Shown: piece after piece, positions 8,756-64,000 of the stretch
Layout: each line of letters starts with the position of its first letter
Position numbering within the stretch: the stretch's first letter is position 1
Sequence record: OR621298
From: Escherichia phage vB_EcoD-Elw
Strand: one strand, 5' to 3'
Length of the DNA stretch: 64,000 bases
The notes under the pieces: model-generated
What the model was told of the DNA's origin: nothing
Database searches by the model: none
Seen by the model: only the letters and a program-made list of their open reading frames with translations
Translations under genes and position numbers: made by a program

Positions 8756-8972
8756 AAAATGGGAAACAAGGAAGTTCCCAGTAAAAGAACGTAAAGTTCC
8801 TGTTTATGATACTTCGGAAAAGCTATGTAGGGTGGTACCACGTAGATTAGCTGGTATCCCTAACATATCCGAGTGGTTACTTAAACAACGGAAAACAAAC
8901 GTGTCTCTTCGCATCGGCTTTGAATTAGATAAAGTCTATGCTGAACTTGCTTCTTTGCTCAAGGAATCGTAA
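8730..8972 (+). CDS. hypothetical small basic protein
   Basis: 80-aa ORF overlapping the preceding stop. Confidence 0.3.
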   Translation: MLEMTVKNKKWETRKFPVKERKVPVYDTSEKLCRVVPRRLAGIPNISEWLLKQRKTNVSLRIGFELDKVYAELASLLKES

Positions 8973-8980
8973 AAATTTAT

Positions 8981-9009
8981 TTGCTTTCAGGAAAAATTTT
9001 CTGTATAAT
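8981..9009 (+). promoter_or_regulatory. early sigma70 promoter with conserved leader
   Basis: TTGCTT 8981-8986 and TATAAT 9004-9009, 17-bp spacer; leader ataaatttgagagaggag. Confidence 0.7.
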
Positions 9010-9040
9010 AGATTCATAAATTTGAGAGAGGAGTTTAAAT

Positions 9041-9745
9041 ATGGCCGGTTCTCGCAGAAAGAAACATATCCATGAAATCCCGGATGAAGTCTTTAAAAAA
9101 GTTATAGAGCATCTGGAGAACGGTGGTACTAAGAAAGCAGCTTGTGAGATGCTCGGCGTATCATCCAATCCAACTATGGAAAGGATGATTGAAGAGTGGC
9201 AAGACCGCCAGATTCAAGTTGCCGAAATGAAGAAAAAGAAACGTGGCACACTCATTGAAGGTATTGAGTTGGCCAACGTTATTGAACAGTATTTATCTGG
9301 TGATTCTTTTGAAGAGATTGCCGATCGTAATTATCGCTCTGTAGCAATGGTTAAATCTGTTCTGGAACGCTATGGTGCTCTGCTTCGTTTGAACGATATT
9401 GTAGACCCGTTGAATCCTCCTATTATTCCTGATGATGCTGTAGCAGAAGAATTTGAAGTTGGTGAGCTTGTTTGGGTTCCTGGATACCAGTGTATCGGTG
9501 AAATCAAAAAAGCAATGGATAATCCTGTTGGTTGCTACCGTGTATGGCTTCTATCGGAAGGCAAACAACAGAACGTTCATTATATGAATTATGAGCTGGC
9601 TTCTGTTAAACACCTGGAAAAGTTAGGAGTTGATGTAAAATCTCTGGGGTATAAATGGACTCGGGAAGAAGTCATTACGTTGATTAACGAAGCTGTTAAG
9701 GCCGCCTTGAAACTTGATAAAGAAAAAGGAAAACGCCGTGAGTAG
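9041..9745 (+). CDS. putative HTH DNA-binding early protein
   Basis: 234 aa; N-terminal HTH-like segment GGTKKAACEMLGVSSNPTMERM. Confidence 0.45.
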   Translation: MAGSRRKKHIHEIPDEVFKKVIEHLENGGTKKAACEMLGVSSNPTMERMIEEWQDRQIQVAEMKKKKRGTLIEGIELANVIEQYLSGDSFEEIADRNYRSVAMVKSVLERYGALLRLNDIVDPLNPPIIPDDAVAEEFEVGELVWVPGYQCIGEIKKAMDNPVGCYRVWLLSEGKQQNVHYMNYELASVKHLEKLGVDVKSLGYKWTREEVITLINEAVKAALKLDKEKGKRRE

Positions 9746-9989
9746 ACTAACTGATTTACTTAAAGATGGGGAAGTAAAAACACTATATCGTAGAAGCTGG
9801 GGTAACGATAATAACGGCTTAGTATTACTAACTTTAGATGCTGACTCGGATGTAGCTACTCAGCATACCTGGGTAGCCGGTAACTATCCATATAGCGAGG
9901 TTGTTTCATTAACAGTATGCGAAGCTATTGCAGACGATTGGGAGGTTGCCAGCATCGAGGATATGCTCGCTGTTGGCCTGGTGGAGTAA
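9714..9989 (+). CDS. hypothetical protein
   Basis: 91-aa ORF. Confidence 0.4.
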   Translation: MIKKKENAVSRLTDLLKDGEVKTLYRRSWGNDNNGLVLLTLDADSDVATQHTWVAGNYPYSEVVSLTVCEAIADDWEVASIEDMLAVGLVE

Positions 9990-10006
9990 CTACTTAAAAA
10001 TTTCAG

Positions 10007-10035
10007 TTGCTTAATCCTATAATTCTTGATATAAT
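10007..10035 (+). promoter_or_regulatory. early sigma70 promoter
   Basis: TTGCTT 10007-10012 and TATAAT 10030-10035, 17-bp spacer. Confidence 0.6.
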
Positions 10036-10092
10036 ATTCTCATAGTTTGAAAGAACTATTCTGTTTAATTCTTAATTAAGGAAATATAAAAT

Positions 10093-10503
10093 ATGACTAC
10101 TCCAACTCAGTGGACTGATGAACTGTTCGAAAAAATGTCTTCCGAATACGTTGCTCGTATGGAGCAATTCCCAGAGGATGAACGTCCTGGTGTTAGCATG
10201 GAAATTGTTAGCGAAATTGCCCAGGAAAATGGTGTAACTCCGAACGGTTTTCGTATGAAGCTAACTAAAGCAGGTTTGTACATCAAGAAAGCTGCTGGCT
10301 CTGCTTCTAAATCTAGTGCATCTACTGGAGAAAAAGCTTCTGGTGGTTCTCGCACTTCTAAAGCTAAAGCTCATGCCGACCTTCGTTCCGCATTCTCTGA
10401 TGCTGGCCTAGCACCAGATTTTCTGGATGATGCAATTATTGACAAACTGACCGGTAAAGCGGCTGCTCATCTGGCAGAAGCAATCCGAGCTATCACTAAG
10501 TAA
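10093..10503 (+). CDS. hypothetical Ala/Ser-rich early protein
   Basis: 136 aa; host-optimal codons suggest high expression. Confidence 0.5.
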   Translation: MTTPTQWTDELFEKMSSEYVARMEQFPEDERPGVSMEIVSEIAQENGVTPNGFRMKLTKAGLYIKKAAGSASKSSASTGEKASGGSRTSKAKAHADLRSAFSDAGLAPDFLDDAIIDKLTGKAAAHLAEAIRAITK

Positions 10504-50953: not shown

Positions 50954-52876
50954 TTAGGTAAGGCGTTGAATTATAAGTTTAATATTTGGTAAGCATGCTT
51001 TCATGCCAATTATATTGCTCATAGAGGATTCTAACCAAATAGAGATATTATTATTTCCATCATTTCTCATATAGTATGTTAGAGTATAGTAACCCGTTTG
51101 ACCTACGGATCCTGGCAACCCAGATACCCAGTACGGAGTTGGAGTATACCCAGCAGCCTGTAATTTACAAGCATTTACTACAGTACCTTTAATAGTAAAA
51201 AATGGTACATATTCTCCTGCAGGTAGGGACAATATTTGGTGAAGTTTTTTATCAATAGTATTGCCACCCATTCTAAACCTACTATCGCCATATTCAGCGC
51301 CTTTAGATAGCATTTCCGTAGGATTAAAGCAGCCAATACCTCCTGCAGACAACCATGTGTCATCTAGGAACTCCATAGTACATACAATTGCACCATTTCT
51401 ACTACTATTAAGATCTAGTCCCACGGTACCAACATGCACGGAACCATTACCCTGAAATACTATGTTACCAGATAGTACAGTACTTCCGCTACCACCTAGA
51501 AGTCTTAAAGGTAGAAGATTTTCACTCCAAACGTCCCCATAATTACTCCCTATTTTTGGAGGATTACTAGAAACATACCAAGATGCTGAAGGTAAAAAGT
51601 TATAAATACTAACTACATTAGTATTTAAACCACCAACGTTACCACCCTTAATACTTGGTGCGTTATTGCTTTCTGTGGTTGGTAGTCCAAATGTTGCTAT
51701 GCCAGAGATCCCAGTAGAGGGGCCACCCATACTCAAGTTACACCCAACATCACGAAAATCAGCTCTGCTCCCTACATTAAAGTTTTTCTCAACAAAGTTG
51801 ATAAACTTCCAAGATGTATTATTAACGTTAATACCTTTAATAATAAATTCAGTGGGGCTTAATTTTATATCATTACCTGTAAATAATCCAGCATCAATAC
51901 TATAACCTGAACCATTATACACTAAGTTAGTAACATACCAGGTAATTTTAGATGGATAAATACCGAGGTGCTCACTATATATACCTATGGGCCCATTAGC
52001 AGCATCATTCGGATCACCCATACTTTCCCAATACGCATAGTTAGTGGGATCAGCACGTGCGAAACCTACAGAGTACTTAGGAGCCGAGGGATTGCTAGGA
52101 TTAGACATAAAGTTAAGAGCCCCTGAACTCGACGCCCCATGTACAGCTCCAGCAGTGGTGTAGTTGGGCCCTTCCATACCATAAAGAACTCTATTACAAG
52201 ACCTACCACGAACATATATGGCGTTAAATCCAAAGTTTCTAGCTCCGGGATGCCTAACGTAGTCGCTAGGGATAGTTAGAGTTCCTGAATCCGGCACTAC
52301 ATATCCTGAACCATCCCAGGCAGACTTATAAAGAGCGGCACCCCCTAAATACATTGCACTAGATGCAAACCCTCTACGCCCACTAAAGGCGCCAAACATA
52401 TGCTGACATCCAGTACCGTCTCTTAATTTCTGGGGGATCGTACCGCTAGTACCACTATTAAAATAGCCTACATCAAGAGATAGATCAGCACTAGCTGTTA
52501 TTTGTGTTTTTAAACCACCTTGAGACATGACCTGCGGATTTATAATTCCATACGCTTTAGCTCCTACCCCCATAGACATGCCAGATAGCATATGTCTAGA
52601 GCCATCTGAGAACTCAATCTCTGTCAGCACAACCCTATTAGGATCATTATTATGTAACTGGGTAATTCTGCTAGGCATATCAGACCAGTAGTAATCTCCA
52701 GCACCTTGATCTAGCCTCAACCCTGTGGAGTGAGTTTCTGTTATGATAACATGGGGCATATCTGAATGGAATATGGTCTGAGAGTCAGGATTAATATGTT
52801 GATTAGTATCTCCGCCACTACCCCTGCGTAGAGAGAGTATAGATTTGTTATTTAGCTTGCCAGCGAAAAAACTCAT
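50954..52876 (-). CDS. oad: receptor-binding tail protein (pb5-like)
   Basis: 640 aa; Gly/Ser/Asn-rich beta-type sequence; last late gene, beside an llp-like lipoprotein gene as in T5. Confidence 0.7.
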
Positions 52877-52895
52877 AAGTTCTCCAAAAATTTAA

Positions 52896-52924
52896 TTGCT
52901 TATGTTGCTATAATTCTGTATAAT
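52896..52924 (+). promoter_or_regulatory. sigma70 promoter for the llp-like gene
   Basis: TTGCTT 52896-52901 and TATAAT 52919-52924, 17-bp spacer; leader ataaattaaacagaggag. Confidence 0.65.
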
Positions 52925-52955
52925 AGTATTATAAATTAAACAGAGGAGAATGTAA

Positions 52956-53189
52956 ATGAAAAAATTATTTTTAGCTATGGCAGTGGTACTTCTTTCGGCT
53001 TGCTCTACTTTTGGGCCTAAAGATATTAAATGTGAGGCCTACTATGTACAAGATCATGTGAAATATAAGGCTAATGTTTTTGATAGAAAAGGGGATATGT
53101 TCCTGGTGGCACCAATCATGGCCTATGGATCTTTCTGGGCTCCAGTAAGCTACTTTACCGAGGGGAATACATGTGAAGGAGTTTTCTGA
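52956..53189 (+). CDS. llp: lipoprotein Llp-like (receptor-blocking superinfection exclusion)
   Basis: 77 aa; lipobox LLSAC; convergent with the receptor-binding gene. Confidence 0.75.
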   Translation: MKKLFLAMAVVLLSACSTFGPKDIKCEAYYVQDHVKYKANVFDRKGDMFLVAPIMAYGSFWAPVSYFTEGNTCEGVF

Positions 53190-53301
53190 GGAGAATCCCT
53201 CCCATAAACCCATGCCACTTAGGGTGGATCCTAGGTCAAAACTAGTTCACAATGCAATTGAGGTCATTCAGAACACCATATAAGATAAAATGTTATGACT
53301 T

Positions 53302-53487
53302 GTGCAATTGCTAGAATATTCCAAATACCACATTTACGGGAGTATGAAAGACATGTCAAACGGCAACAAAAGAAAGAACAGACGTGGAGAAGTGTACGAT
53401 AGCTGGATTAATAGCTTTGGGTTCGGAACTATTCTATTCTTTATTTTCGTAGGTTTTTGGTTAGCAGCTATGGCGGGGTGGATCTAA
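53302..53487 (+). CDS. small membrane protein (start uncertain)
   Basis: 61 aa with a C-terminal hydrophobic helix; internal ATG at 53344 is an alternative start. Confidence 0.4.
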   Translation: MQLLEYSKYHIYGSMKDMSNGNKRKNRRGEVYDSWINSFGFGTILFFIFVGFWLAAMAGWI

Positions 53488-53594
53488 TGGACTGGGTAAT
53501 TATTGCACTACTGGGGATTGTGATTATTGGGCAATGTATCTTAGATAATCACTTAGCTAGAATCGAAACCTTACTATCGGAGAAACGTAAATGA
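53487..53594 (+). CDS. small membrane protein, 35 aa (not in ORF track)
   Basis: ATG 53487 overlaps the upstream TAA; encodes MDWVIIALLGIVIIGQCILDNHLARIETLLSEKRK. Confidence 0.35.
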   Translation: MDWVIIALLGIVIIGQCILDNHLARIETLLSEKRK

Positions 53595-53785
53595 TGGAAG
53601 TGGCAATTACACTAATGGTAATATTAGTCTGGGCAGTTTTCATTATTTATTACACCGTGTACGTTCGCCTAAAAACGCTAGAAGCTCAAGTGAAGCAACA
53701 GCAATTTGCTATAGAAAAACTATCAGAATTGCAACGTTGTGATAGTACCCGTATTCTGCAAATTGGGAGGGAATTAGATGTTTAG
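53591..53785 (+). CDS. small membrane protein
   Basis: 64 aa; N-terminal TM helix; ATGA overlap with the upstream stop. Confidence 0.4.
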   Translation: MMEVAITLMVILVWAVFIIYYTVYVRLKTLEAQVKQQQFAIEKLSELQRCDSTRILQIGRELDV

Positions 53786-54023
53786 TATTGTAATTGCTTT
53801 TATTATCGGGATACTCGCGGGGGTTTTCGGGACAACTGCGGCAATCAACAAGCATCGTAAATATATTGCGGGAGTGACGCGGGAGATTGCGGAAAGGGAG
53901 CGGAAGTTTGACGAGAAACGTGCGGAGTTTGAGCGAGAATGGTCGGATGGATCTCGGGCGTCGCGGAAGAGATTTCGTGAGTTTAGACCTGAACATCTGT
54001 TTGATGACCCTTCTATGCGCTAA
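53778..54023 (+). CDS. small membrane protein with charged C-terminus
   Basis: 81 aa; N-terminal TM helix and Arg/Glu-rich tail; may straddle a terminal-repeat boundary. Confidence 0.35.
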   Translation: MFSIVIAFIIGILAGVFGTTAAINKHRKYIAGVTREIAERERKFDEKRAEFEREWSDGSRASRKRFREFRPEHLFDDPSMR

Positions 54024-54174
54024 TTTGACTTTTGCCAAATTTCATAAGATTACACATGGAGGTGTGTCCACTGGCTGGCTAGATGAGAATGAGTCTCATT
54101 ACCGCCCGGTACTTAGCAGGCTAATAGTCACGGCATGTTATCATTACACACCGTGACTATTTCAACTTTAATTA

Positions 54175-54909
54175 TTACGCAACTTTTAATTTCTCAATAT
54201 ATTGTTGCGGGCTGCAACTATATTCTGCGCGTTCTTCCTCGGTCATACTTTCCCAACATAATTGCAGGCGGTCGGCTAGGAACTGATAATCATTATCATC
54301 CTCAAGAGATTCATCAATAAAGGTTTCACCTATCAATGTAACCCCAATCGATAGAATATCGTTAACGGCTTGCGCGTCCAGCGTTTTAAATCCGTATGAT
54401 GCCGCCGCTGATAGCACGCCTTTATGATCATCAATCATCGTGAAATCAGCGTTCGGATATAATTGTTTAAATAACTCAAAGTAATGGCTTTTATAAATAG
54501 CGTCTTTGCTGTGGTATATCTCGCTAACTTTATCAGCCTCAAAATATTTGTGTAGTGTATCGCGGGAAAATACACGGATATTACTATCCCCACGCCCTCG
54601 CAATCCTTGTTTGCGCAAATAATAATAATCCGACTTGCTCATTAGTCGAGCGGTGCAAATAATGTTTAACGTGTTAACGTCATTCATACATTGGCGCATA
54701 TATGTAACAAGGGGCAATAGTGTATCTTGCATTATTAAATCATGTTTGCAGGCTTCATTTTTATACTTATTTAAATCTAAATTGCCCTCGCTATCAAAGC
54801 AAGGCGCTACGCGATGGAAAGAATTAATGATAGTGCCGTCCAGATCCCAAATCATGACGCGGGAAATATGCGGGAAATTACGGGTAATATTCGTTTTAAC
54901 TTGATTCAT
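54175..54909 (-). CDS. dmp: HAD-family 5'-deoxyribonucleotidase (dmp-like)
   Basis: 244 aa; HAD motif I WDLDGTII and C-terminal MIDDHKG; first gene of the pre-early block. Confidence 0.7.
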   Translation of the reverse strand: MNQVKTNITRNFPHISRVMIWDLDGTIINSFHRVAPCFDSEGNLDLNKYKNEACKHDLIMQDTLLPLVTYMRQCMNDVNTLNIICTARLMSKSDYYYLRKQGLRGRGDSNIRVFSRDTLHKYFEADKVSEIYHSKDAIYKSHYFELFKQLYPNADFTMIDDHKGVLSAAASYGFKTLDAQAVNDILSIGVTLIGETFIDESLEDDNDYQFLADRLQLCWESMTEEERAEYSCSPQQYIEKLKVA

Positions 54910-54989
54910 TTTGTTACGTTCTCCATTTAAGGGATTAGATTAATTCAGCATTACCCGCTATTTATAAGCGGGTAATAATAAATTAACTA

Positions 54990-55382
54990 TTAAAGACCAT
55001 ACGCCAACGCATCAGCAATAAAACTAATATCTTCACCAGATACACCGGAACGAATGCCCGCGCAGGTATATACCTTTGCGCTGGTCAATTGATCATCGAG
55101 GCAAGCGGGGCAAGGCGCGACAACTGCAAAGGCTAGGCCGGATTTTACGGCGTCGATGATAATCGTTTCTTGTTTCACAGTGTCAACATAAACACCTTTT
55201 GCTTTAATATGGCTAGTTAGTTTACCTTGCGTATAGGCAAAGGTAGTAACCTGCAAAGCGTCGTTAAAGTCCAATAGCTCATCAATAACGTGCCCCGCCT
55301 CGACGTGGTAACGTTCACCATTAGAATAAACCAGAACAATGGAAGATTGAGCGCGATCGAATGGGATATTTTGCTTTTTCAT
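54990..55382 (-). CDS. hypothetical pre-early protein
   Basis: 130-aa ORF. Confidence 0.45.
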   Translation of the reverse strand: MKKQNIPFDRAQSSIVLVYSNGERYHVEAGHVIDELLDFNDALQVTTFAYTQGKLTSHIKAKGVYVDTVKQETIIIDAVKSGLAFAVVAPCPACLDDQLTSAKVYTCAGIRSGVSGEDISFIADALAYGL

Positions 55383-55422
55383 ATTTATAAAACTCCAATT
55401 AATTTAATAAAGGGTATTTAAT

Positions 55423-55680
55423 TTACTTGATAATAATCTGCATTTGATACGGCGTTAATTCACCATTTACGGGTAAATTATTATCGCTTAGCCACTCATA
55501 AAAAGCGTCATCATCGTCAAAAGGGATAATATCATTATCACGATAATCGACCGTAATAATCCCATCCGTATTAGTTTTGGCGGCTAGGATAGGCCCGAAG
55601 CTGTAAACTTTATCGGATTCCATTTCATCCGGTGAAATAAATGCTTTTTCGTCCAGCGTTTTGGGTAATGTAACTTTCAT
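55423..55680 (-). CDS. hypothetical acidic pre-early protein
   Basis: 85-aa ORF. Confidence 0.45.
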   Translation of the reverse strand: MKVTLPKTLDEKAFISPDEMESDKVYSFGPILAAKTNTDGIITVDYRDNDIIPFDDDDAFYEWLSDNNLPVNGELTPYQMQIIIK

Positions 55681-55736
55681 TCTAATTTAGCTCCTATAAT
55701 AGCGGCTATATTTCAAGCCGCTAGGGTATTAATTAT

Positions 55737-57401
55737 TTACGCAAAAAATTTACCGTTCTTAAAATCGATCAAAGTACGCTGACCATTTGCATAGGTAATT
55801 AAATGCGTTTGTGTCCAGCTTGACGCGCCAACGTTGTAACCCATGTCCAGACTACCAGCCACGCCAGCGGTATATACCCCGCCGTAAATGCTGGCGGTAT
55901 GAGTGTGCCCCGTGTTTAATTTGCCCAATTTCTTAAACTGTTTCGGATTGCCACGGCTGCCGTTTATGCCATTGTGACCGTGTACGCCGCATTCAATGCC
56001 TGCAATTTTAAATGATTGGTCAGTCGTTAGGAAAATGGCGTTAAACTCGCAACCTGCAACCTTACGCAGCGCATAATCTAGCACGTTGAAAGTATCGTCT
56101 TTTTCTGCAATAGCTCCGTAAATCGCGGCATTCAGGCGGTGATATAGTTCCGCGTTCGCTGGGTCGTCTTTAATGTTAGCATTACGATCATCAAGCCAAC
56201 GGGATAGCGCCAAATCGTGATTCGATTCAACAATGATTGTTTGCGAGAAATCGCGCTCCATTGATTCCAGTACGCGCCCCGTATCGATGAGATCATCCAG
56301 AACTTTATCACGTCCGGCGGCGTATTGTTTTGCTAGGAATACACCCGAAGCGCGGTTGTGATGGTTGCGTGATGTAAAATCGTGAACGTCATGGATAAAC
56401 TGATATTTTGGTTTAAGAATATCAAGCAAGCTATTTTCGCCAGCCCATGACGCAATGGCACAATCATCATCAAGTTTTTCGGCGTGTATGTCGCCATATT
56501 GCAAGCCTAAAACATGCCCCGATGTTTCATAGCATCCGGCGGGAGTAGCGCAAACATTCAGATCATAAAACACCCCGCTTTCGTCCATTGTTTCAAGCTG
56601 GCGAACAAAAAACTCACCGTCTTCGTCGAACTCAACAATCAGCGCACCGAAGTTATGCAGTGCTTCCGCTTTCTGTCCTGCTTTCTGCTGGATGTAATTT
56701 TTAAGCGTTGCCGTGCCAGTTGAATACATGCGGCGCACTACTTCACCTTTTAAAGCTGGCACGCTTTCGGCGGTGATTTTAGCGTGACCAATTGCCAGAC
56801 CTTCCAGATTAAGCGCGGTTGCAGTTTCAGCGAATCCAGAAAGCGGATAATCTGCGGTGGGCAAAACATTAATTTCAGCCATGAAAGCAAAACGGCGATT
56901 ATTCAAAAACACGTTTTTGCTGCAAATATATTTATCGAACGCGGAATCATATTTTATTCCATCCGCGCCCTCGCCATTTTGGAATCCGTTTTTATTATAA
57001 ATATACTTGCTAACCAGCAAATCAGCGCCGATATATTTAGCAAATTGCTCCAGTGAGGCTAAAAAGTTTTTATGCGGGAACGTATTATTCTGAATCGATG
57101 TAATAATAAAGCGTTTGCCTTGTTTTACTTCCCAGCTTTCCACCGTGCTAGAAACAATCCCCGCCGCTTCTGGGCGCTCATCGTTTTTAATGGCTTTTGC
57201 TACTTTCGCCGCTTTCGGTTTCGCTGGTTTATTTGCTTCCAGCCAATCACAAATAGCGGTGGAATGTTTTGGAGTATCGTAAACCGCTTTTGATATATCG
57301 TCACAAACTTCCAATTTAGTGGCGCGCAGGCGTTTACCGTAGAAATTAAAGTCAGCGGCCATTTTCAGGATAACGGTTTGTTTTTCTGCGGAAATAATCA
57401 T
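55737..57401 (-). CDS. A1: A1-like pre-early protein, metallophosphoesterase-fold nuclease
   Basis: 554 aa; calcineurin-like motifs GDIH, ESNHD, HGH, GHTH; size close to the 556 aa I recall for T5 A1. Confidence 0.7.
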   Translation of the reverse strand: MIISAEKQTVILKMAADFNFYGKRLRATKLEVCDDISKAVYDTPKHSTAICDWLEANKPAKPKAAKVAKAIKNDERPEAAGIVSSTVESWEVKQGKRFIITSIQNNTFPHKNFLASLEQFAKYIGADLLVSKYIYNKNGFQNGEGADGIKYDSAFDKYICSKNVFLNNRRFAFMAEINVLPTADYPLSGFAETATALNLEGLAIGHAKITAESVPALKGEVVRRMYSTGTATLKNYIQQKAGQKAEALHNFGALIVEFDEDGEFFVRQLETMDESGVFYDLNVCATPAGCYETSGHVLGLQYGDIHAEKLDDDCAIASWAGENSLLDILKPKYQFIHDVHDFTSRNHHNRASGVFLAKQYAAGRDKVLDDLIDTGRVLESMERDFSQTIIVESNHDLALSRWLDDRNANIKDDPANAELYHRLNAAIYGAIAEKDDTFNVLDYALRKVAGCEFNAIFLTTDQSFKIAGIECGVHGHNGINGSRGNPKQFKKLGKLNTGHTHTASIYGGVYTAGVAGSLDMGYNVGASSWTQTHLITYANGQRTLIDFKNGKFFA

Positions 57402-57442
57402 AGTAATAAAACTCCATTAAAGGGATTAAAAAACGTTTGTTA

Positions 57443-57486
57443 TTGGCAAATATTGCCAAATATAACGCCTATTATTTGAGGCGTTA
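57443..57486. promoter_or_regulatory. two palindromes upstream of the A1-like gene
   Basis: ttggcaa-ata-ttgccaa (57443-57459) and taacgcct-8nt-aggcgtta (57463-57486). Confidence 0.4.
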
Positions 57487-57498
57487 TAATTTGCAACA

Positions 57499-57744
57499 TT
57501 AATTTAAAGGCATAAGGCTAGAACTAACACCACAAACAACGGCGGCAATAAAACAAATCAGACCTAAACGCTTTGCTAACTTAGATTTACGTTTAAAATA
57601 ATATGAATCTAAATCATTTTGAAAATAAGCGAATAGTAATGAGGCCGCCATAATAAATAAGCCTAGAATTAAGGATTCAGTAGGGTAAAAGATCATTTTA
57701 ATAACTCCAGTCAAAGGGAAATTATAGTGGGGAATATTCCCCAC
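57499..57744 (-). CDS. small two-helix membrane protein
   Basis: 81 aa with two hydrophobic segments. Confidence 0.45.
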   Translation of the reverse strand: MGNIPHYNFPLTGVIKMIFYPTESLILGLFIMAASLLFAYFQNDLDSYYFKRKSKLAKRLGLICFIAAVVCGVSSSLMPLN

Positions 57745-57753
57745 TAATTAAAT

Positions 57754-58170
57754 TTATTCGCCTGCGGCTTGTTTCACTTCATCGGCAACGCCTAACAGTT
57801 GCGCCACGGCGTCCAGCGTTTCCAGTTTTGCGCTTTCCAGTGATGCCAGATCGTCGGCGTCTTTGATAATGCCGGAATCGATAGCGTGTTTTGCAATAAC
57901 GCGCACATAATGCGCTTTGCGGATTGAGCTACCGCCGCCAACTTTGCGCGGCTTATCGCTTTTCTGATACGCTTTTGCGCTGGTCAATTTTGAGCGAACG
58001 GACACGGGGGAGGCCGCGCCAACTGCTTTTGCAATCTCTTTCAGGCCGTCGCTATTTGCGAAATCTAAACCGTTTTCATTAATTAACTGCTGGTACATGG
58101 TAACAGCTTTTTGGGTGTTTTCTTCATTCCATGCAAATTTTGCGGATTTTTCGGTTTTAACGTTAGCCAT
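57754..58170 (-). CDS. A2-like pre-early protein (putative)
   Basis: 138 aa; position directly upstream of A1; assignment by synteny only. Confidence 0.4.
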   Translation of the reverse strand: MANVKTEKSAKFAWNEENTQKAVTMYQQLINENGLDFANSDGLKEIAKAVGAASPVSVRSKLTSAKAYQKSDKPRKVGGGSSIRKAHYVRVIAKHAIDSGIIKDADDLASLESAKLETLDAVAQLLGVADEVKQAAGE

Positions 58171-58269
58171 GATTGTAGCTCCTATTAGTTTAATTTAAGG
58201 GATAAGATTAACATAATGTTAATCGTTATATCCCCCGAACTACTAGGGGGATATAAAGTTAACACTAAA

Positions 58270-58521
58270 TTATAAAACAGCTTCCCATTTTTCGTTACGC
58301 TGGACAACCTTTACAACGTCGCCGGATTTAACGCGAACGCTAAAAACGGTTTTGCCGTTGTTACTCCGTTCCGTTTCAGCGTATACCGCGTCGATTGTAT
58401 CGAACGGCATAAGCGCCGCGCCTTTAATGCGTTCGGCCTTTCCGGTTAATTCATCCGTTTTAGTAACGAAAGGAATAAAAACGGATTGACCAACTTTCGG
58501 CGCGGTAATAACGTTTTGCAT
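58270..58521 (-). CDS. hypothetical pre-early protein
   Basis: 83-aa ORF with AGGAG RBS. Confidence 0.45.
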   Translation of the reverse strand: MQNVITAPKVGQSVFIPFVTKTDELTGKAERIKGAALMPFDTIDAVYAETERSNNGKTVFSVRVKSGDVVKVVQRNEKWEAVL

Positions 58522-58556
58522 AATATAAACTCCTAGTTATTTGGGGATTGTTCCGC

Positions 58557-58586
58557 ATTACCTGCTAGAAAGTAACAGCAGGTAAT
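58557..58586. promoter_or_regulatory. palindrome upstream of the 83-aa ORF
   Basis: attacctgct-agaaagtaac-agcaggtaat, perfect 10-bp arms, no U-tract. Confidence 0.4.
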
Positions 58587-58719
58587 AAGTAACAATCCGC
58601 TCGCCAATATAATCAATTTAAAGAACTCCACGCAGGCCGCTATATCCCAGTTAGGGGGCGGGGCACATTATGGTAAGTGCCGACCGTCAAATTTTATCAA
58701 GTTATCGCTCTTATCGAAC

Positions 58720-58744
58720 TGGGTACATCTTAAAGCCTATCGGC
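58720..58744. repeat. 25-bp perfect inverted repeat, copy A
   Basis: tgggtacatcttaaagcctatcggc; exact reverse complement of 58988-59012. Confidence 0.85.
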
Positions 58745-58751
58745 TAGGGTG

Positions 58752-58955
58752 TCAAACAATTTTTTGCAGTTTTTTATGATTTTCTTTTAAGTCAATCATA
58801 ATATTACGCCAGATCATTTCCAGACCTTGCTGGCGGCCTTTCTTGTACTGCTTAAATCGATATTTTACCGATCTTTGCGCTACTGTCAACAAATTTTTTG
58901 TTTTGCTGTCCAGTGCCTTGCTAGGTTTACCAGTGATCAATAAAGTTTGTTTCAT
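58752..58955 (-). CDS. small basic protein enclosed by the 25-bp inverted repeats
   Basis: 67 aa, Lys/Arg-rich; ATGA-type overlap with the upstream ORF. Confidence 0.4.
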   Translation of the reverse strand: MKQTLLITGKPSKALDSKTKNLLTVAQRSVKYRFKQYKKGRQQGLEMIWRNIMIDLKENHKKLQKIV

Positions 58956-59242
58956 ATCGTCGATTCCTTATAATGTATAAGTTTACCGCCGATAGGCTTT
59001 AAGATGTACCCAATTTTTAAAGAGCGCGGCGGTAAACTTCCCGCCGTGTAGTTCGTCATTGCCGCCCTACGAGATAAATAATAGGGGATTCCCGAAAATG
59101 GCGCAACCTTATTTTTGTAAAGAAATGTAAAGACAAACGCCACCGGACACCATGCGGCGACCGGGGCGCGGCGCATTAAAATTAAAAGAAACGGGCGCGC
59201 GAATACCATAAAACCCAGCAGGTTGGCAAGTAATTTTTTCAT
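58952..59242 (-). CDS. hypothetical protein with N-terminal hydrophobic segment (doubtful)
   Basis: 96-aa ORF; weak RBS; its coding sequence contains inverted-repeat copy B. Confidence 0.3.
   Translation of the reverse strand: MKKLLANLLGFMVFARPFLLILMRRAPVAAWCPVAFVFTFLYKNKVAPFSGIPYYLSRRAAMTNYTAGSLPPRSLKIGYILKPIGGKLIHYKESTI
58988..59012. repeat. 25-bp perfect inverted repeat, copy B, with nested local stem
   Basis: gccgataggctttaagatgtaccca; flanked by gtttaccgcc (58981-58990) and ggcggtaaac (59028-59037). Confidence 0.85.
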
Positions 59243-59411
59243 TTATATTTGCCTTGCCCTACTTGACAAAACTTAAAAAGCTCGTGGTAGCGATAAACGA
59301 GGGTAGGCAATGCAATGGCATGGCTAAAACTTTCATCGCGTTCTAGGGCGTTTTAGGCGCATTCTAGCCTTGTTGATAACTTATCCCCAAAAGCAAAAAT
59401 GAAATTTTCCT

Positions 59412-59448
59412 AGTTATCCACTTGACTTTTATTTTCCAGTGGATAACT
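59412..59448. promoter_or_regulatory. inverted pair of DnaA-box-like sites
   Basis: agttatccac-17bp-gtggataact; each half is TTATCCACt, one mismatch from the consensus TTATCCACA. Confidence 0.5.
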
Positions 59449-59594
59449 ACTTATTTTATGAAATAAATTAATTGACTTTTATTTGTTAGTATGCATCGGA
59501 AGAATAGCAGACTAATAATTACTAGAATAATAATCATGCTGGTGGATTGTAACGGCCTAAACTATCAGCAGACTATTAATCACGAAAAATCTCG

Positions 59595-59625
59595 TTAGCT
59601 AACTAACTATTTCATGATGTATAAT
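59595..59625 (+). promoter_or_regulatory. candidate sigma70 promoter with early-type leader
   Basis: TATAAT at 59620-59625 followed by atacatataaatt, as in the early promoters; -35 weak. Confidence 0.35.
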
Positions 59626-59741
59626 ATACATATAAATTAATGAGAAATAATAATTATAATAAATAATAACTACAGTAAATAATAACTATAAGAAACTATC
59701 GGCCTAAGTGAGAACCACTATCATTTAAGTTATACACAAAG

Positions 59742-59811
59742 TTATCCACAGCACTTTTTGACTTTACACGATAGGCGGCGATATAAGGACTTTTACACAG
59801 ACTTATCCACA
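59742..59811 (+). promoter_or_regulatory. two consensus DnaA boxes bracketing a candidate promoter
   Basis: TTATCCACA at 59742-59750 and 59803-59811; TTGACT 59758-59763 and TATAAG 59782-59787 lie between them. Confidence 0.5.
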
Positions 59812-60104
59812 GGTTATTCCACTGTATAAATATACAGGGTAAAAAGGTAGTGTTAACAACTGCAATCAATTTTAAGCGGCTTAAATCGCATTCTAACGAG
59901 CTAAACGCTGCGGGGTAATATTAAAGTAAAGCCTTAATGCGTCACCCTGGTGGCTTCGCCGTGGTTTGCTCTTTATTGCACCGCTGCGCGGTTAGCATAA
60001 AAATAGGCGCTAGGCAAGGAAAATAAAAAGGTAAAATAATATTTGCCTATGCTAGAAATTTACCTTTATCATTCACTCACCGATTAACGAGGGAGGCCGA
60101 ACAA

Positions 60105-61115
60105 ATGAGGCTTTATAAACCTGATAATGCCACCGTTTTAAAAGGTGCATTGCGCAACCTGCTGGATGGTAGCAAGTCAACCAGCATTAAACATTTTATT
60201 AACAAGATTGAAACTATTCATCAAAACTTTTTTGATGATTATGACGCTTATGATATGGATAGTTTTCTACCCTTATATAGACAAGGGGCAACGCTAGTTT
60301 TATATAATCGGGATTGCCATATCTTTACAGGCAGGGGAGCGGGGCCGGATACCGATTTTATTGTTGCGCAGGGTAATAATATTGTTGCGTATCATAGCAA
60401 TTCAGGCCGTCAATCATTTAATATAAATAGTTTTGAGCTTATTGGACTTGATCTGATAAATGGACTTTCTAGCATTGAGGGATTTTTAGATGTTATCTGG
60501 AAGTATTTACCCGCTGGATGGCATAAGCCGGATAACGACGGATCTCAATATACCGGTATAATGGCTTTTGATGGCGACGGTAATTTTTTGTTACCACGGG
60601 AGCTATACCCATATATTTATGATGGGGATATAGAAAGCGCTGGTTTTTCTTTCTGGAAAGATGAAGATCAGATTATTGACAGCGTAGAAAACCATGCTGT
60701 AAATTCTAACACTCAAAGCGTTAACACTCAAACTACTGAAAACAAAGGAAAAAACACTATGACCAAGATTGCTAACATCGTTGCCGCTAATAAATCCGCC
60801 GTTGTAAATGCTGCAAAACTGGAAGCGGGTAAAATTGCACTGACTCAAATTACGAAAGTAGCGGCTAAAAAAGCACCGTTTATGATTAAAGGTTATATTG
60901 ATACACCTATCGGTCGAGTAGTGATTGCCAACCTGCTGGGCGTAGCGGTTGACCAGTACGCCACAAGTAACCAAAAGGCGAAAGCGGTGGCAGGTGCAGC
61001 TATGGAAGCGGCTATGTTAGAAATGGTGCAAAGTTTTAACATCGCTGAGATGATTGATGAAATGGTAAAAGGTATTGATATTTCTACTTTTACCACTAGC
61101 ACCGAAAGCGAGTAA
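60105..61115 (+). CDS. hypothetical pre-early protein
   Basis: 336 aa; first gene of the rightward cassette; GGGAGG RBS. Confidence 0.55.
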   Translation: MRLYKPDNATVLKGALRNLLDGSKSTSIKHFINKIETIHQNFFDDYDAYDMDSFLPLYRQGATLVLYNRDCHIFTGRGAGPDTDFIVAQGNNIVAYHSNSGRQSFNINSFELIGLDLINGLSSIEGFLDVIWKYLPAGWHKPDNDGSQYTGIMAFDGDGNFLLPRELYPYIYDGDIESAGFSFWKDEDQIIDSVENHAVNSNTQSVNTQTTENKGKNTMTKIANIVAANKSAVVNAAKLEAGKIALTQITKVAAKKAPFMIKGYIDTPIGRVVIANLLGVAVDQYATSNQKAKAVAGAAMEAAMLEMVQSFNIAEMIDEMVKGIDISTFTTSTESE

Positions 61116-61180
61116 TAATATTAAGCGGGGATTGTTACCCCGCTTTACTATTCCCTTGTTAACTAATAGGAGGCTAATAA

Positions 61181-61675
61181 ATGGCTGATGAAAAATATGG
61201 CTTCTCACTGGGAGAAGTGAGCACGGCAAAACATGATATGATCATTTTGGTCGATTGTCATACTGGCTATTGCGGGGAAGGGAACACCGAGGAATATTTT
61301 GTTCCTGCTGGTACGGATCTGGACGCTTTCGCTCAGGAAATGGCTATTGATAATGCTTCTCGTTTTGGTAGCGATGGTTACGAAGACGAAGAAACTGGCG
61401 AATGGTATGAAAATGAAAACGTATATGCAAGCCTTTATCATTATCAATTAAGTAAATCCGGCACATATGTAAACGGCGGCGATCCTATTAATTCCGTCAT
61501 GAGATTAATTATTAAATATGGCGGCGTCGAGATAGTTGGTAACAAAGCGGTAATATACGCAAATCGATTAAAACAGCTTGTTTATATTCCTGATAGTACC
61601 CGATGGGATGAATATGCTGTTTTGCATGACGAATTGAAACGATGTTTCAATATTGAATCCTTACAAGTAGTCTAA
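61181..61675 (+). CDS. hypothetical strongly acidic pre-early protein
   Basis: 164 aa, about 29 Asp+Glu versus 11 Lys+Arg; AGGAGG RBS. Confidence 0.55.
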   Translation: MADEKYGFSLGEVSTAKHDMIILVDCHTGYCGEGNTEEYFVPAGTDLDAFAQEMAIDNASRFGSDGYEDEETGEWYENENVYASLYHYQLSKSGTYVNGGDPINSVMRLIIKYGGVEIVGNKAVIYANRLKQLVYIPDSTRWDEYAVLHDELKRCFNIESLQVV

Positions 61676-61780
61676 TGTAAAGTTTTGTAAAGGTCGCCTT
61701 TTATGGTGGCCTTTTTTGTTATAATGCCTTTACACCGTTTGAGGACGGTTGAAAATTTTCCCAAAAATTGGAGGCTTAAA

Positions 61781-62011
61781 ATGGTTGCTTATTCTTCTGC
61801 TAGTCATCTGTTCACCGCTCAAGGCTGGGTATCTAACCGCGTTATTATTCACGAAATGGTGCAAGAATATGGCATTGCTAAAACATACAATACCATTCAG
61901 GCGCTTTATGATAATGATCAAATCGATCAGCAAACGGCGGGCTTTTTGCTGGATACCCTGAAAGCAGAACATTGCACCAAAAAACAAGCGGCTAAAATTG
62001 TTTTAATGTAA
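61781..62011 (+). CDS. hypothetical small protein
   Basis: ATG at 61781 with GGAGG RBS; the ORF track starts further upstream. Confidence 0.45.
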   Translation: MVAYSSASHLFTAQGWVSNRVIIHEMVQEYGIAKTYNTIQALYDNDQIDQQTAGFLLDTLKAEHCTKKQAAKIVLM

Positions 62012-62052
62012 TTAATAACGGGGCGTTATTTTCGCCCCACTAACTAGGGGGA

Positions 62053-62208
62053 ATGAAAATGGTTATTTTTCGAGCTATTTTAGCGGGTATCTTGGGCGCT
62101 ATTTTATCGTTGTTTGCAATAGCTTTCGGCGTTCACGCGGTTATTATTGGCGCGGGTATCGCTGCATTTTCTTATCTGCTGGGCTGCATGACTAGTAAAG
62201 GAGAATAA
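62053..62208 (+). CDS. small hydrophobic membrane protein, 51 aa (not in ORF track)
   Basis: ATG 62053; MKMVIFRAILAGILGAILSLFAIAFGVHAVIIGAGIAAFSYLLGCMTSKGE. Confidence 0.4.
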   Translation: MKMVIFRAILAGILGAILSLFAIAFGVHAVIIGAGIAAFSYLLGCMTSKGE

Positions 62209-62210
62209 AA

Positions 62211-62423
62211 ATGATCCGCAATGTTTCCCTTGCCCGTTCGAAAGGCTTTAAGCTGGTGGATGTTAACACGTTCGAGCGTGAAGATTGTAAAATCGAATAT
62301 GTAGCACGTAATAAGAATGCCTTTCGTGTTACAGAAAAGAAATTTGACAAGCGCGGCAACGTGATCGCTGAAACGGTTAAACACTTTGCCACCTTTTACG
62401 CTGCGTTTCGTGGGGTGTTATAA
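62211..62423 (+). CDS. hypothetical small protein
   Basis: 70 aa; AAAGGAGAA RBS. Confidence 0.5.
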   Translation: MIRNVSLARSKGFKLVDVNTFEREDCKIEYVARNKNAFRVTEKKFDKRGNVIAETVKHFATFYAAFRGVL

Positions 62424-62424
62424 A

Positions 62425-62769
62425 ATGGTTATTTATGAGGGCAACCGCTTTGTTGCTAATTGCCGCCCTGCATTGCTAGCAAATTACTTAAATCAGCTTT
62501 CACCAGCTTATAAGGGCGTTATTAATATTTATGAAGGCAAGGCGCATTATAAAATCAATGCGGTCGTTGCCCGTGAACTAGCGTTTCAATTTTTGACCTT
62601 TGCATCTTGTGACGTTCAGGTCATGGGTGAAGCGTTAATTGCAGAAAATGAAGATGATTTTATTAATATTTTTCGCAAGATATGCACCGAGCGCCTGATA
62701 ATGAAAGGCGCTTATATTCAATCCACTGCGGATAGTATTGAAACAGCGTTTCGAAAGGTGGCGCAATGA
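62425..62769 (+). CDS. hypothetical protein
   Basis: Start placed at ATG 62425, just after the upstream stop. Confidence 0.45.
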   Translation: MVIYEGNRFVANCRPALLANYLNQLSPAYKGVINIYEGKAHYKINAVVARELAFQFLTFASCDVQVMGEALIAENEDDFINIFRKICTERLIMKGAYIQSTADSIETAFRKVAQ

Positions 62770-62969
62770 GCAATAAAATTGTTGTAACCAAAATCAGTAC
62801 AATGGTTGATGTTTTTTACGTGCCCGATACGCCGGAAAACCGGCAAGCGGTCGAGCGTGGCGAGTATGATAAAGTGATTTATGATCACGATGGTTATTAT
62901 CAGCATTTGGTCGATTCCTATGGGGAAGAGGAAAAGATCACGCATCAATTACCGGAGGATGGTTTATGA
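62766..62969 (+). CDS. hypothetical small acidic protein
   Basis: 67 aa; overlapping start and stop. Confidence 0.45.
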   Translation: MSNKIVVTKISTMVDVFYVPDTPENRQAVERGEYDKVIYDHDGYYQHLVDSYGEEEKITHQLPEDGL

Positions 62970-63221
62970 AACGATGGTTTAATCACTGGTATAAGCGGTT
63001 TTTAGTACGCCGTCGCAAATCTAGACATCAAGATGAGTGGCGGGAGTGGGCAAAGCGTAACGGTTGCCCGCTACTCTGAGAACGACGGGGATTAGCTCCC
63101 CGTTTTTCCATGCCTCCAGTTAAATACCCCCTTGTTTTAGTATCCCCACCAAAATTAAACGCGTTAGAATGCGATCTAGGACGTTTTAGCGGTATATTAG
63201 AATTATTCACTACATAGGAAT

Positions 63222-63332
63222 ACTGTATATTTATACAGTAGGATAAGCTGTGGATAAGTCTGTTAATAACGCCTCAAAATGGCTAGGATTCTGTCAAGTC
63301 AAATCGTGCTGTTAATAAGTCTGTGGATAACT
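63222..63332. promoter_or_regulatory. DnaA boxes (inverted orientation) and palindrome
   Basis: TGTGGATAA at 63249-63257 and 63322-63330; palindrome actgtata-tt-tatacagt at 63222-63239. Confidence 0.55.
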
Positions 63333-63344
63333 TAAATAATAGTG

Positions 63345-63506
63345 TTTCTCACTTCCATTCTTAAATGCAAATCATTATCATTCGCATTTCACTTTCTAAA
63401 TGAGAATCATTTCACTTCTTGAATAGTTCTCATTTCACTTTTTAAATGCGAATTATTATCATTCTCATTTCGCTTTTTAAATGATTCTTATTATCATTCG
63501 CATTCA
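63345..63506. repeat. five degenerate ~30-bp direct repeats
   Basis: Units of form tt(t/c)tTAAATG(c/a)gAAT(t/c)ATTATCATTCGCATTTCAC, imperfect, no unique spacers. Confidence 0.7.
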
Positions 63507-63509
63507 GGC

Positions 63510-63536
63510 GCGCAGGGCAATTGCCCTGCGCTTTTG
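63510..63536 (+). terminator. GC-rich palindrome with T-tract
   Basis: gcgcagggc-aatt-gccctgcgc followed by tttt. Confidence 0.45.
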
Positions 63537-63757
63537 TGCAAATCCGACATTGCTCCACGGGTGTTACGTGCGGGCGTGTATGTGCGAATCCGACAATTTT
63601 TGGTAGTGTGCAAATCCGACCCGAAAAATTTTTATAGTGTGCAAATCCGACAATGAATTTTCCCAAAAACTCCAGCAATCCGATGCTGCGCATCAATCCT
63701 GTGGAATTAGCTAGAATATGTGCAAATCCGACATGGGTTTATTTGTGCGAATCCGAC
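63536..63757. repeat. six direct 13-bp iterons GTGC(A/G)AATCCGAC
   Basis: Copies at 63536, 63582, 63608, 63639, 63720 and 63745, same orientation; degenerate copy near 63674. Confidence 0.75.
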
Positions 63758-64000
63758 AAGATTTTTGTGACTTTGATTGGAGGGTGTGTGATTGTATGGG
63801 TTTGAGGAGAAGATGAGAGAGCGAGAAAAATTTGAGGGAACTGTGAGAGGGGCGCAGGATTGGTGCGGAGCACCTGATTTGCGGGGATTTTGGGGAAGAG
63901 TTGAGATAATTTGGGAAGATTTGGGATAGGTGCAGATAAAGTAAAATTTTATTAGCAAAACGAGGCAAAATAGCTTGACAAGTGAAAATTTCTGTGGCTC

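Follow-up and report, generated by a model that had tools for sequence, protein, structure and literature searches.

The G-rich tract at 53800-54000 of the window (the whole stretch of 64,000 nucleotides analysed in this study) is, with a probability of about 0.88, coding DNA for the charged tail of a homologue of the phage T5 gene T5.162 (ORF151), located beside the inferred boundary of the terminal repeat and not forming it. The coding status of this DNA, its homology and the T5-type position of the boundary were established after comparison with T5 and its relatives, and both the 81-aa gene and the repeat boundary are already known from the annotation of T5. According to this explanation, the tract would encode a cytoplasmic and highly charged alpha-helix, the tail of a single-pass membrane protein of 81 residues, and the richness of the tract in G and purines would come from two sources, the amino acid composition of the protein (Arg, Glu, Ala, Gly and Lys) and a preference of the whole family for G-ending codons; this gene would be the last one in unique DNA, and the repeat would start directly past a 28-nt junction block. 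The sequence-only reading had taken the tract itself for a possible repeat boundary or terminal sequence, but this proposal was abandoned, because the tract is included in a conserved coding gene, in unique DNA, at a spacing to the boundary that varies among relatives.

Base composition of the G-rich tract

The shift in base composition noted near 53.8 kb was confirmed in 200-nt bins, with a GC content of about 0.37 at 53600-53800, 0.52 at 53800-54000 and again 0.39 past 54000, as compared with 39% across the whole 64-kb window. On the plus strand, the tract consists of 25% A, 16% C, 35% G and 23% T (61% purines), with a GC skew of +0.365. With a G fraction exceeding the mean by 4.2 SD, it ranks second for G among the 200-nt bins of the whole window, next to the bin at 63731-63960 that contains another G-rich tract (63780-63935, hereafter the second tract), and it ranks third for GC skew and about eleventh for purine content. 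The motifs of gcggga/gagcg type that had been pointed out in the tract are also present: GCGG appears eight times (at 53817, 53838, 53868, 53879, 53889, 53900, 53922 and 53963), from a total of 143 on the plus strand of the whole window. The 4.2-SD excess of G, the second rank and the eight GCGG motifs together indicate that the compositional anomaly is correct and no chance fluctuation. The ratio of observed to expected CpG is 1.8 in this tract versus 0.93 in the second tract. Within 53800-54000 the GCGG motifs are spaced at multiples of about 10.5 nt, which appears to reflect the i, i+4, i+7 arrangement of Ala and Arg (residues 31, 35, 38, 42 and 49), that is, the periodicity of an amphipathic helix in the protein.

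No RNA structure was detected in or around the tract (z -0.46), except for a single stem-loop at 54124-54160 (see below), and the search for Rfam families over 52500-64000 gave nothing credible. Canonical G-quadruplex motifs are absent from the 64-kb window. GGA motifs show a modest excess in 53800-54000 (11 observed versus 6.4 expected) and are no more frequent in the second tract than its composition predicts, and the ideas of a CsrA sponge and of G-quadruplexes were dropped on these grounds.

The T5.162 homologue

The region is 87-93% identical to T5-like phages (Tequintavirus), and the best DNA identity among the top matches in the phage collection is 93-97.5%. The genes are arranged in the order pb5/oad (50954-52876, minus strand), llp (52956-53189, plus strand), four small membrane-protein ORFs (plus strand), dmp (54175-54909, minus strand), A1 (55737-57401, minus strand) and A2 (57754-58170, minus strand). 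Of these, dmp (deoxynucleoside-5'-monophosphatase), recognized as an ORF with annotated homologues, is the first pre-early gene inside the repeat, and its product is 100% identical to that of phage NBEco002. The flagged tract corresponds to codons 8-75 of the ORF at 53778-54023 (plus strand), mainly the Arg/Glu/Ala-rich charged helix. This ORF, the translation of which is MFSIVIAFIIGILAGVFGTTAAINKHRKYIAGVTREIAERERKFDEKRAEFEREWSDGSRASRKRFREFRPEHLFDDPSMR (81 aa), is the last plus-strand gene of the llp-T5.159-162 cluster and is located in unique DNA, 3' of llp and 5' of the right repeat and dmp, as in the maps of T5 and chee24.

All 81 residues of the protein match positions 1-81 of the profile phrog_6447 ('membrane protein') with an E-value of 5.1e-47, and its relatives, 82 clusters with E-values down to 3.6e-44, all belong to T5-like phages or their metagenomic kin. 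Since no homologue was found outside T5-like phages among these 82 relatives, a foreign origin of the gene was dismissed. A match to the Pfam LapA domain was also rejected, its score of 21.9 bits being below the curated cut-off of 28 bits. The counterpart in T5, T5.162 in NC_005859 and ORF151 in AY587007, has the same length of 81 aa, 86% protein identity and the same N-terminal hydrophobic helix plus charged tail, and occupies the same place: it is preceded by llp and three other genes for small membrane proteins, closes this plus-strand series and is followed by the repeat at 42 nt. The T5 gene is likewise G-rich (G 0.31, third-position G 0.34), and the few substitutions between the two proteins mostly fall within the C-terminal 14 residues (EFRPEHLFDDPSMR in the window versus EFRPKYGVDDHSMR in T5).

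The protein includes 12 Arg, 9 Glu, 8 Ala, 5 Gly and 5 Lys. Residues 1-23 are hydrophobic and are followed by the charged tail (...REIAERERKFDEKRAEFEREWSDGSRASRKRFR...); the membrane anchor is read from the sequence and from the annotation of T5.162 as a membrane protein that 'contains single transmembrane domain'. In an AlphaFold2 model of moderate confidence (mean pLDDT 68.6), built with 20 homologues, residues 2-68 form a single uninterrupted helix, and we read the protein as a putative membrane helix followed by a charged helix.

In a set of 22 homologous DNA sequences, 26, 19 and 43 of 67 sites were variable at the first, second and third codon positions, respectively, the third being the most variable, and the mean dN of 0.075 and mean dS of 0.34 gave a dN/dS ratio of about 0.2. 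Length variants of the charged tail in homologues stay in frame, with 7 aa lost or 4 aa gained. The segment 53778-54023 is a genuine protein-coding gene under purifying selection. An ORF of 109 aa on the opposite strand (53709-54038) was dismissed; it stays open because the sense frame carries no TTA, CTA or TCA codons.

Several homologues (P0017, P0074, P0079, P0072 and P0080) carry in-frame deletions of 7 aa (21 nt) and 17 aa or a duplication of 4 aa in the charged helix, and these indels sit between direct repeats of CGGRAG type; P0080, a 129-aa variant, reads on in the +2 frame past a frameshift. The C-terminus of the family is mosaic from about codon 67 (about 53979-54023 in the window), with EFRPEH..., MSESGDKPVDRRSS, AKVSDEE and IDGKS as the alternatives. 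The lineages with alternative tails that were examined contain extra ORFs between the T5.162-family gene and the repeat boundary: L027 has one of 71 aa, and those of L019 and L026 comprise 165-184 aa and show a motif resembling that of HNH endonucleases.

Preference for G-ending codons

The charged helix is spelled with the G-ending codons GCG, CGG, GAG, GGG and TCG, and the extreme preference is carried by codons 25-67. The third-position G content of 53778-54023 is 0.383 versus 0.156 +/- 0.037 for the long ORFs of the window, none of which exceeds 0.23. After simulation of the same protein with the codon usage of the window, a G content of 0.247 +/- 0.011 and a third-position G content of 0.143 +/- 0.031 were expected, as compared with 0.325 and 0.383 observed. 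The G content of this gene exceeds what its amino acid composition would give by itself. CGG is used for 4 of its 12 Arg codons (2% window-wide) and GCG for 6 of its 8 Ala codons (10% window-wide). The bias extends over the family, for which the four-fold degenerate sites are 59% G and less than 1% C (12% each in the long ORFs of the window), and third-position G is 0.33-0.43 in every homologue. The 64-kb window contains no tRNA genes that could account for the rare codons.

The silent G of GCG, CGG and TCG codons was less polymorphic than the remaining four-fold sites (Fisher p = 0.005), with a minor allele in at least three sequences at 0 of 12 sites versus 7 of 13, which leaves room for some pressure at the nucleotide level. 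The dS value within the tract, 0.26, is slightly lower than that of the neighbouring genes (0.32-0.42), and the nucleotide diversity (0.04-0.07) is similar to that of dmp. In a rut-like scan of 78-nt windows for C over G, the antisense C/G ratio of 53800-54000 was 3.8, only the eighth in the window, and a rut-like signal in this tract was rejected accordingly. The values of dS and diversity, the lack of RNA structure in the tract and this antisense rank argue against a strong hidden signal at the DNA level. We regard the G-ending bias as genuine and as common to the whole family; a relic of the origin of the gene or of slippage is one possible cause, and a weak strand-specific pressure is another.

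Probable boundary of the right terminal repeat

In the two records of T5, the right repeat starts 42 nt past the stop of the homologous gene (111490 to 111532 and 111572 to 111614, respectively). Alignment to T5 puts the start of the repeat in the window at 54065, in ...CACATGGAGGTG/TGTCCACTGG... (the slash marks the boundary), and the right terminal repeat most likely begins at 54065/54066, 42-43 nt past the stop codon of the 81-aa gene, with either TGTCCACTGG or GTCCACTGG as its predicted start in this genome. A repeat start of T5 type had been expected near the flagged site, and both T5, the termini of which are defined experimentally, and other records support it, at a place about 65 nt beyond the tract. 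The predicted right repeat (54065-64000), including dmp, A1, A2 and the injection-stop region by homology to T5, would thus be about 9,936 bp in length and run to the last base of the window, versus 10,139 or 10,219 bp for the terminal repeat of T5. The long direct terminal repeats of T5 and BF23 have the same left junction, right terminal sequence, dmp, A1, A2 and injection-stop repeats, that of BF23 being 9,743 bp in length (PMC10644984).

The genome starts of six records, T5 included, map to the boundary base within 3 nt. For T5, NBEco002, NBSal005 and three further records, the start is at ...AGGTG/TGTCCA or one to three bases later: TGTCCA forms the first bases of T5 and of the 108,640-bp record; GTCCAG, one base later, forms those of NBEco002, NBSal005 and the 118,452-bp record; the 117,842-bp record starts at its own corresponding base (GCCCAG) and the 108,853-bp record three bases further in. 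The sole deviating record is chee24 (MF431730; L002/L052), in which the repeat is annotated about 95 nt further right, at the stop region of dmp, a probable consequence of the way in which the ends were defined and not a biological difference. None of the 20-mers of 54065-64000 recurs in 1-54064, the window representing the right 64 kb only, so that the other copy of the repeat would lie outside the window; we infer the duplication itself, and with it the presence of a second copy in this genome, from homology.

The distance from the stop codon of the T5.162-family gene to the conserved block at the junction (see below) is 42-43 nt in 13 lineages and 48-53 nt in two, but increases to 248-260 nt in two lineages, one of which shows an extra 71-aa ORF, and to more than 1150 nt in six, with HNH-endonuclease-like ORFs after the gene in both of the two examined. 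Among relatives, the tract thus has no fixed position with respect to the cut site. This variable distance, together with the Klebsiella phage GZ8 that has no such gene, indicates that the tract lies next to the boundary because of the order of the genes and is no component of it.

Inside the repeat, a stem-loop with an 11-bp stem was predicted by folding at 54124-54160 (plus strand), between the convergent T5.162 homologue and dmp. It is a probable transcription terminator, and a putative rho-independent terminator is annotated at the equivalent place in the T5 record AY587007. A scan for the terminator consensus made no call at 54124-54160, the hairpin being missed by this simple search because its loop is longer than 8 nt. 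The hairpin of T5 at this place has a different sequence and also a stable stem, and the occurrence of stable stems in both suggests that the structure was kept through replacement of the sequence.

Conserved blocks at the two ends

Directly left of the inferred repeat start, a block of 28 nt, AAATTTCATAAGATTACACATGGAGGTG (54037-54064, plus strand), was identified by its conservation in most T5-like lineages and in GZ8 (Sugarlandvirus), both of its flanks being variable. Judging from this pattern, it appears to be the 28-nt block, and not the G-rich tract, that marks the repeat boundary, and the block is a candidate for the context of the terminase cut at the left end of the repeat. At the other end, the last 26 nt of the window, TTGACAAGTGAAAATTTCTGTGGCTC (63975-64000, plus strand), are identical to the right terminus of T5, and the last 100 nt align with the right end of T5. 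Five IMG/VR genome contigs containing both copies of the repeat end with the same 26-mer; the window ends in ...TTTCTGTGGCTC, the sequence of the right terminus; and the alignment of 62500-64000 to 8375-10219 of T5 finishes precisely where the T5 terminal repeat does. The identity of the last 26 nt with the T5 terminus identifies the end of the window as the physical right terminus of the genome, in agreement with the sequence-only reading, which had supposed an end near the genome terminus.

GZ8 is more distant, with a dmp protein about 61% identical to that of the window and with no homologue of the 81-aa gene. At the annotated start of its repeat it carries AAATTTCATAAAGTTACACGTGAAGGTGTG, and its genome ends with ...CCTGTGGCTC (the ending is also given as TTGACACAGAAAAAATTCCTGTGGCTC), and left of its repeat the enrichment of G is weak, G reaching only up to 0.33 and the skew at most 0.22. 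The blocks at 54037-54064 and 63975-64000, which are conserved from Tequintavirus to Sugarlandvirus between variable flanks, are proposed as candidate recognition contexts of the inferred terminase cut sites. The right block contains TTGACA, a hexamer resembling a -35 element. An inverted motif, CCAC/CWGTGG, noticed by eye at both ends was not conserved elsewhere (CCAG, CCAA) and was attributed to chance.

The second tract near the right end

The second tract (63780-63935, plus strand) is a non-coding, C-depleted and G-rich segment, recognized by its composition and by its homology to iss of T5, and lies 65-220 nt from the right terminus. With 43% G, 6% C and a skew of +0.74, it is the most skewed stretch of the window, and this composition is shared by 12 T5-like records (G 0.42-0.46, C 0.05-0.08) and by GZ8 (G 0.45), although the sequence itself has changed. 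When relatives are compared, its indels have lengths not divisible by three, as expected for non-coding DNA, and its antisense C/G ratio of 14.2 is far above that of any other 78-nt window. The claim that this tract is similar to the flagged one holds in part: the tract is real and even more extreme, but the likeness is in composition only, and the second tract is a different, non-coding element. Local alignment of the two gave a score of 22 against 20 +/- 2.7 for shuffled sequences, with one common 9-mer, and homology between them was rejected.

In T5, the untranslated iss is annotated at 9140..10149, and the second tract, homologous to its right-hand part, contains copies 2-3 of direct repeat A. 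By this homologous position in iss (Repeat Region 3), the second tract alone, and not the flagged one, belongs to the injection-stop region. It comes after six repeats of DRD type and palindrome J. The DRD repeat, GTGCRAATCCGAC, is present at 63536, 63582, 63608, 63639, 63720 and 63745, and palindrome J, GCGCAGGGCAATTGCCCTGCGC (63510-63531), carries the motif of the major 7.9% single-strand nick of T5; the nick motif (GCGC on the minus strand after the nick) was considered for both tracts and discarded, as it maps to this palindrome instead. Near 63257 and 63330, the minus strand contains two matches to the DnaA box. Of the two tracts, the second is of greater interest.

Alternative explanations

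The idea that the tract 53800-54000 itself serves as the terminal-repeat boundary, or as a terminal or packaging recognition sequence, agrees with the 65-265 nt that separate it from the inferred repeat start on its right, with the occurrence of the sole richer-G stretch at 65-220 nt left of the other repeat end, and with the regular phasing of GCGG, and it counts against the coding explanation that the two top G bins of the window are both within about 300 nt of a repeat boundary. However, the tract is contained wholly in a gene under purifying selection and, lying left of the repeat start shared by T5 and five further records, belongs to unique DNA; it resembles the second tract in nothing but composition; inserted genes break its spacing to the boundary in many lineages; GZ8 keeps the junction and terminal blocks without the gene and with weak enrichment of G (at most 0.33); and the phasing of GCGG is probably that of Ala and Arg in an amphipathic helix. 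On this evidence, a role of the tract as the boundary or its signal is highly improbable. Coding and signalling might also be combined, if the gene carried a superimposed strand-specific signal, for G and against C at silent sites. In one candidate form, a C-rich, G-poor antisense transcript would act as a Rho-dependent stop for read-through from the dmp operon, and the second tract would likewise stop leftward early transcripts entering the left repeat. This agrees with the abundance of G and near absence of C at four-fold sites (59% and less than 1%), the nearly invariant silent G of codons in CGG context, the lack of a T-run in the minus-strand sequence of the hairpin after dmp, the antisense C/G ratio of the second tract that no other 78-nt window approaches, and the transcription of T5.018 and T5.019 leftward, toward the left repeat. 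Against it stand the low rank of the flagged tract in the same scan (eighth, at 3.8), a dS near that of neighbouring genes and the absence of the feature at the equivalent position in GZ8; in addition, pre-early promoters are reportedly shut off early in infection. We consider such a superimposed signal quite unlikely.

The G-ending bias could also be a historical relic, left by acquisition of the gene, or of its charged-tail segment, from a source of different composition or by expansion through slippage of a CGGRAG-type unit, with drift to T5 usage still incomplete. The 21-nt deletions and the 12-nt duplication between CGGRAG repeats in homologues and the restriction of the family to certain lineages are consistent with this, and so is the dS of only about 0.3, at which little amelioration is expected. 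No donor is indicated, however, among the homologues, none of which was found outside T5-like phages; the bias is toward G alone and not toward G plus C (third-position C less than 1%), unlike that of genes from GC-rich genomes; and it persists in both Tequintavirus-type and more divergent MFSFVAIF-type lineages, so that a relic is an unlikely source. More broadly, the G-rich, C-poor composition at both repeat boundaries, the second tract included, might represent a selected strand-specific cis signal, a speculation that we hold to be unlikely. If it were true, the second tract would be part of a site for packaging initiation or end formation at the right terminus, or a Rho-type insulator against leftward transcripts, and the G-ending codons of the T5.162 homologue would result from the same pressure acting via silent sites. 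Coding for the charged tail of the T5.162 homologue remains the preferred explanation of the flagged tract.

Relation to known systems and significance

The repeats, palindromes and DnaA boxes of T5 Repeat Region 3 are listed in the part of the account by Davison available to us (bioRxiv 10.1101/866236), and the C-depleted, G-rich composition is unmentioned in that part. The second tract is homologous to the right-hand part of this region, of which the flagged tract forms no part. Short repeat arrays also flank the terminal repetition of phage T7, and like GCGG in the flagged tract, these are short motifs clustered beside the boundary of the terminal repeat. Unlike the T7 arrays, the flagged tract is coding, the spacing of its motifs has the period of a helix, and its distance to the boundary is variable.

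For the annotation of this genome, the gain is a likely repeat start at 54065/54066 and the assignment of the end of the window as the physical end of the genome. The G-ending codon bias of a small membrane-protein gene is a minor oddity, but the case indicates that a compositional anomaly near a landmark of a phage genome can be a gene with unusual amino acid and codon content. We know of no account that works out how T5-like terminases make their ends, and the candidate blocks shared across genera at both cut sites, together with the C-depleted last 220 nt or so of the genome, may be useful for studies of end formation in T5-like phages.
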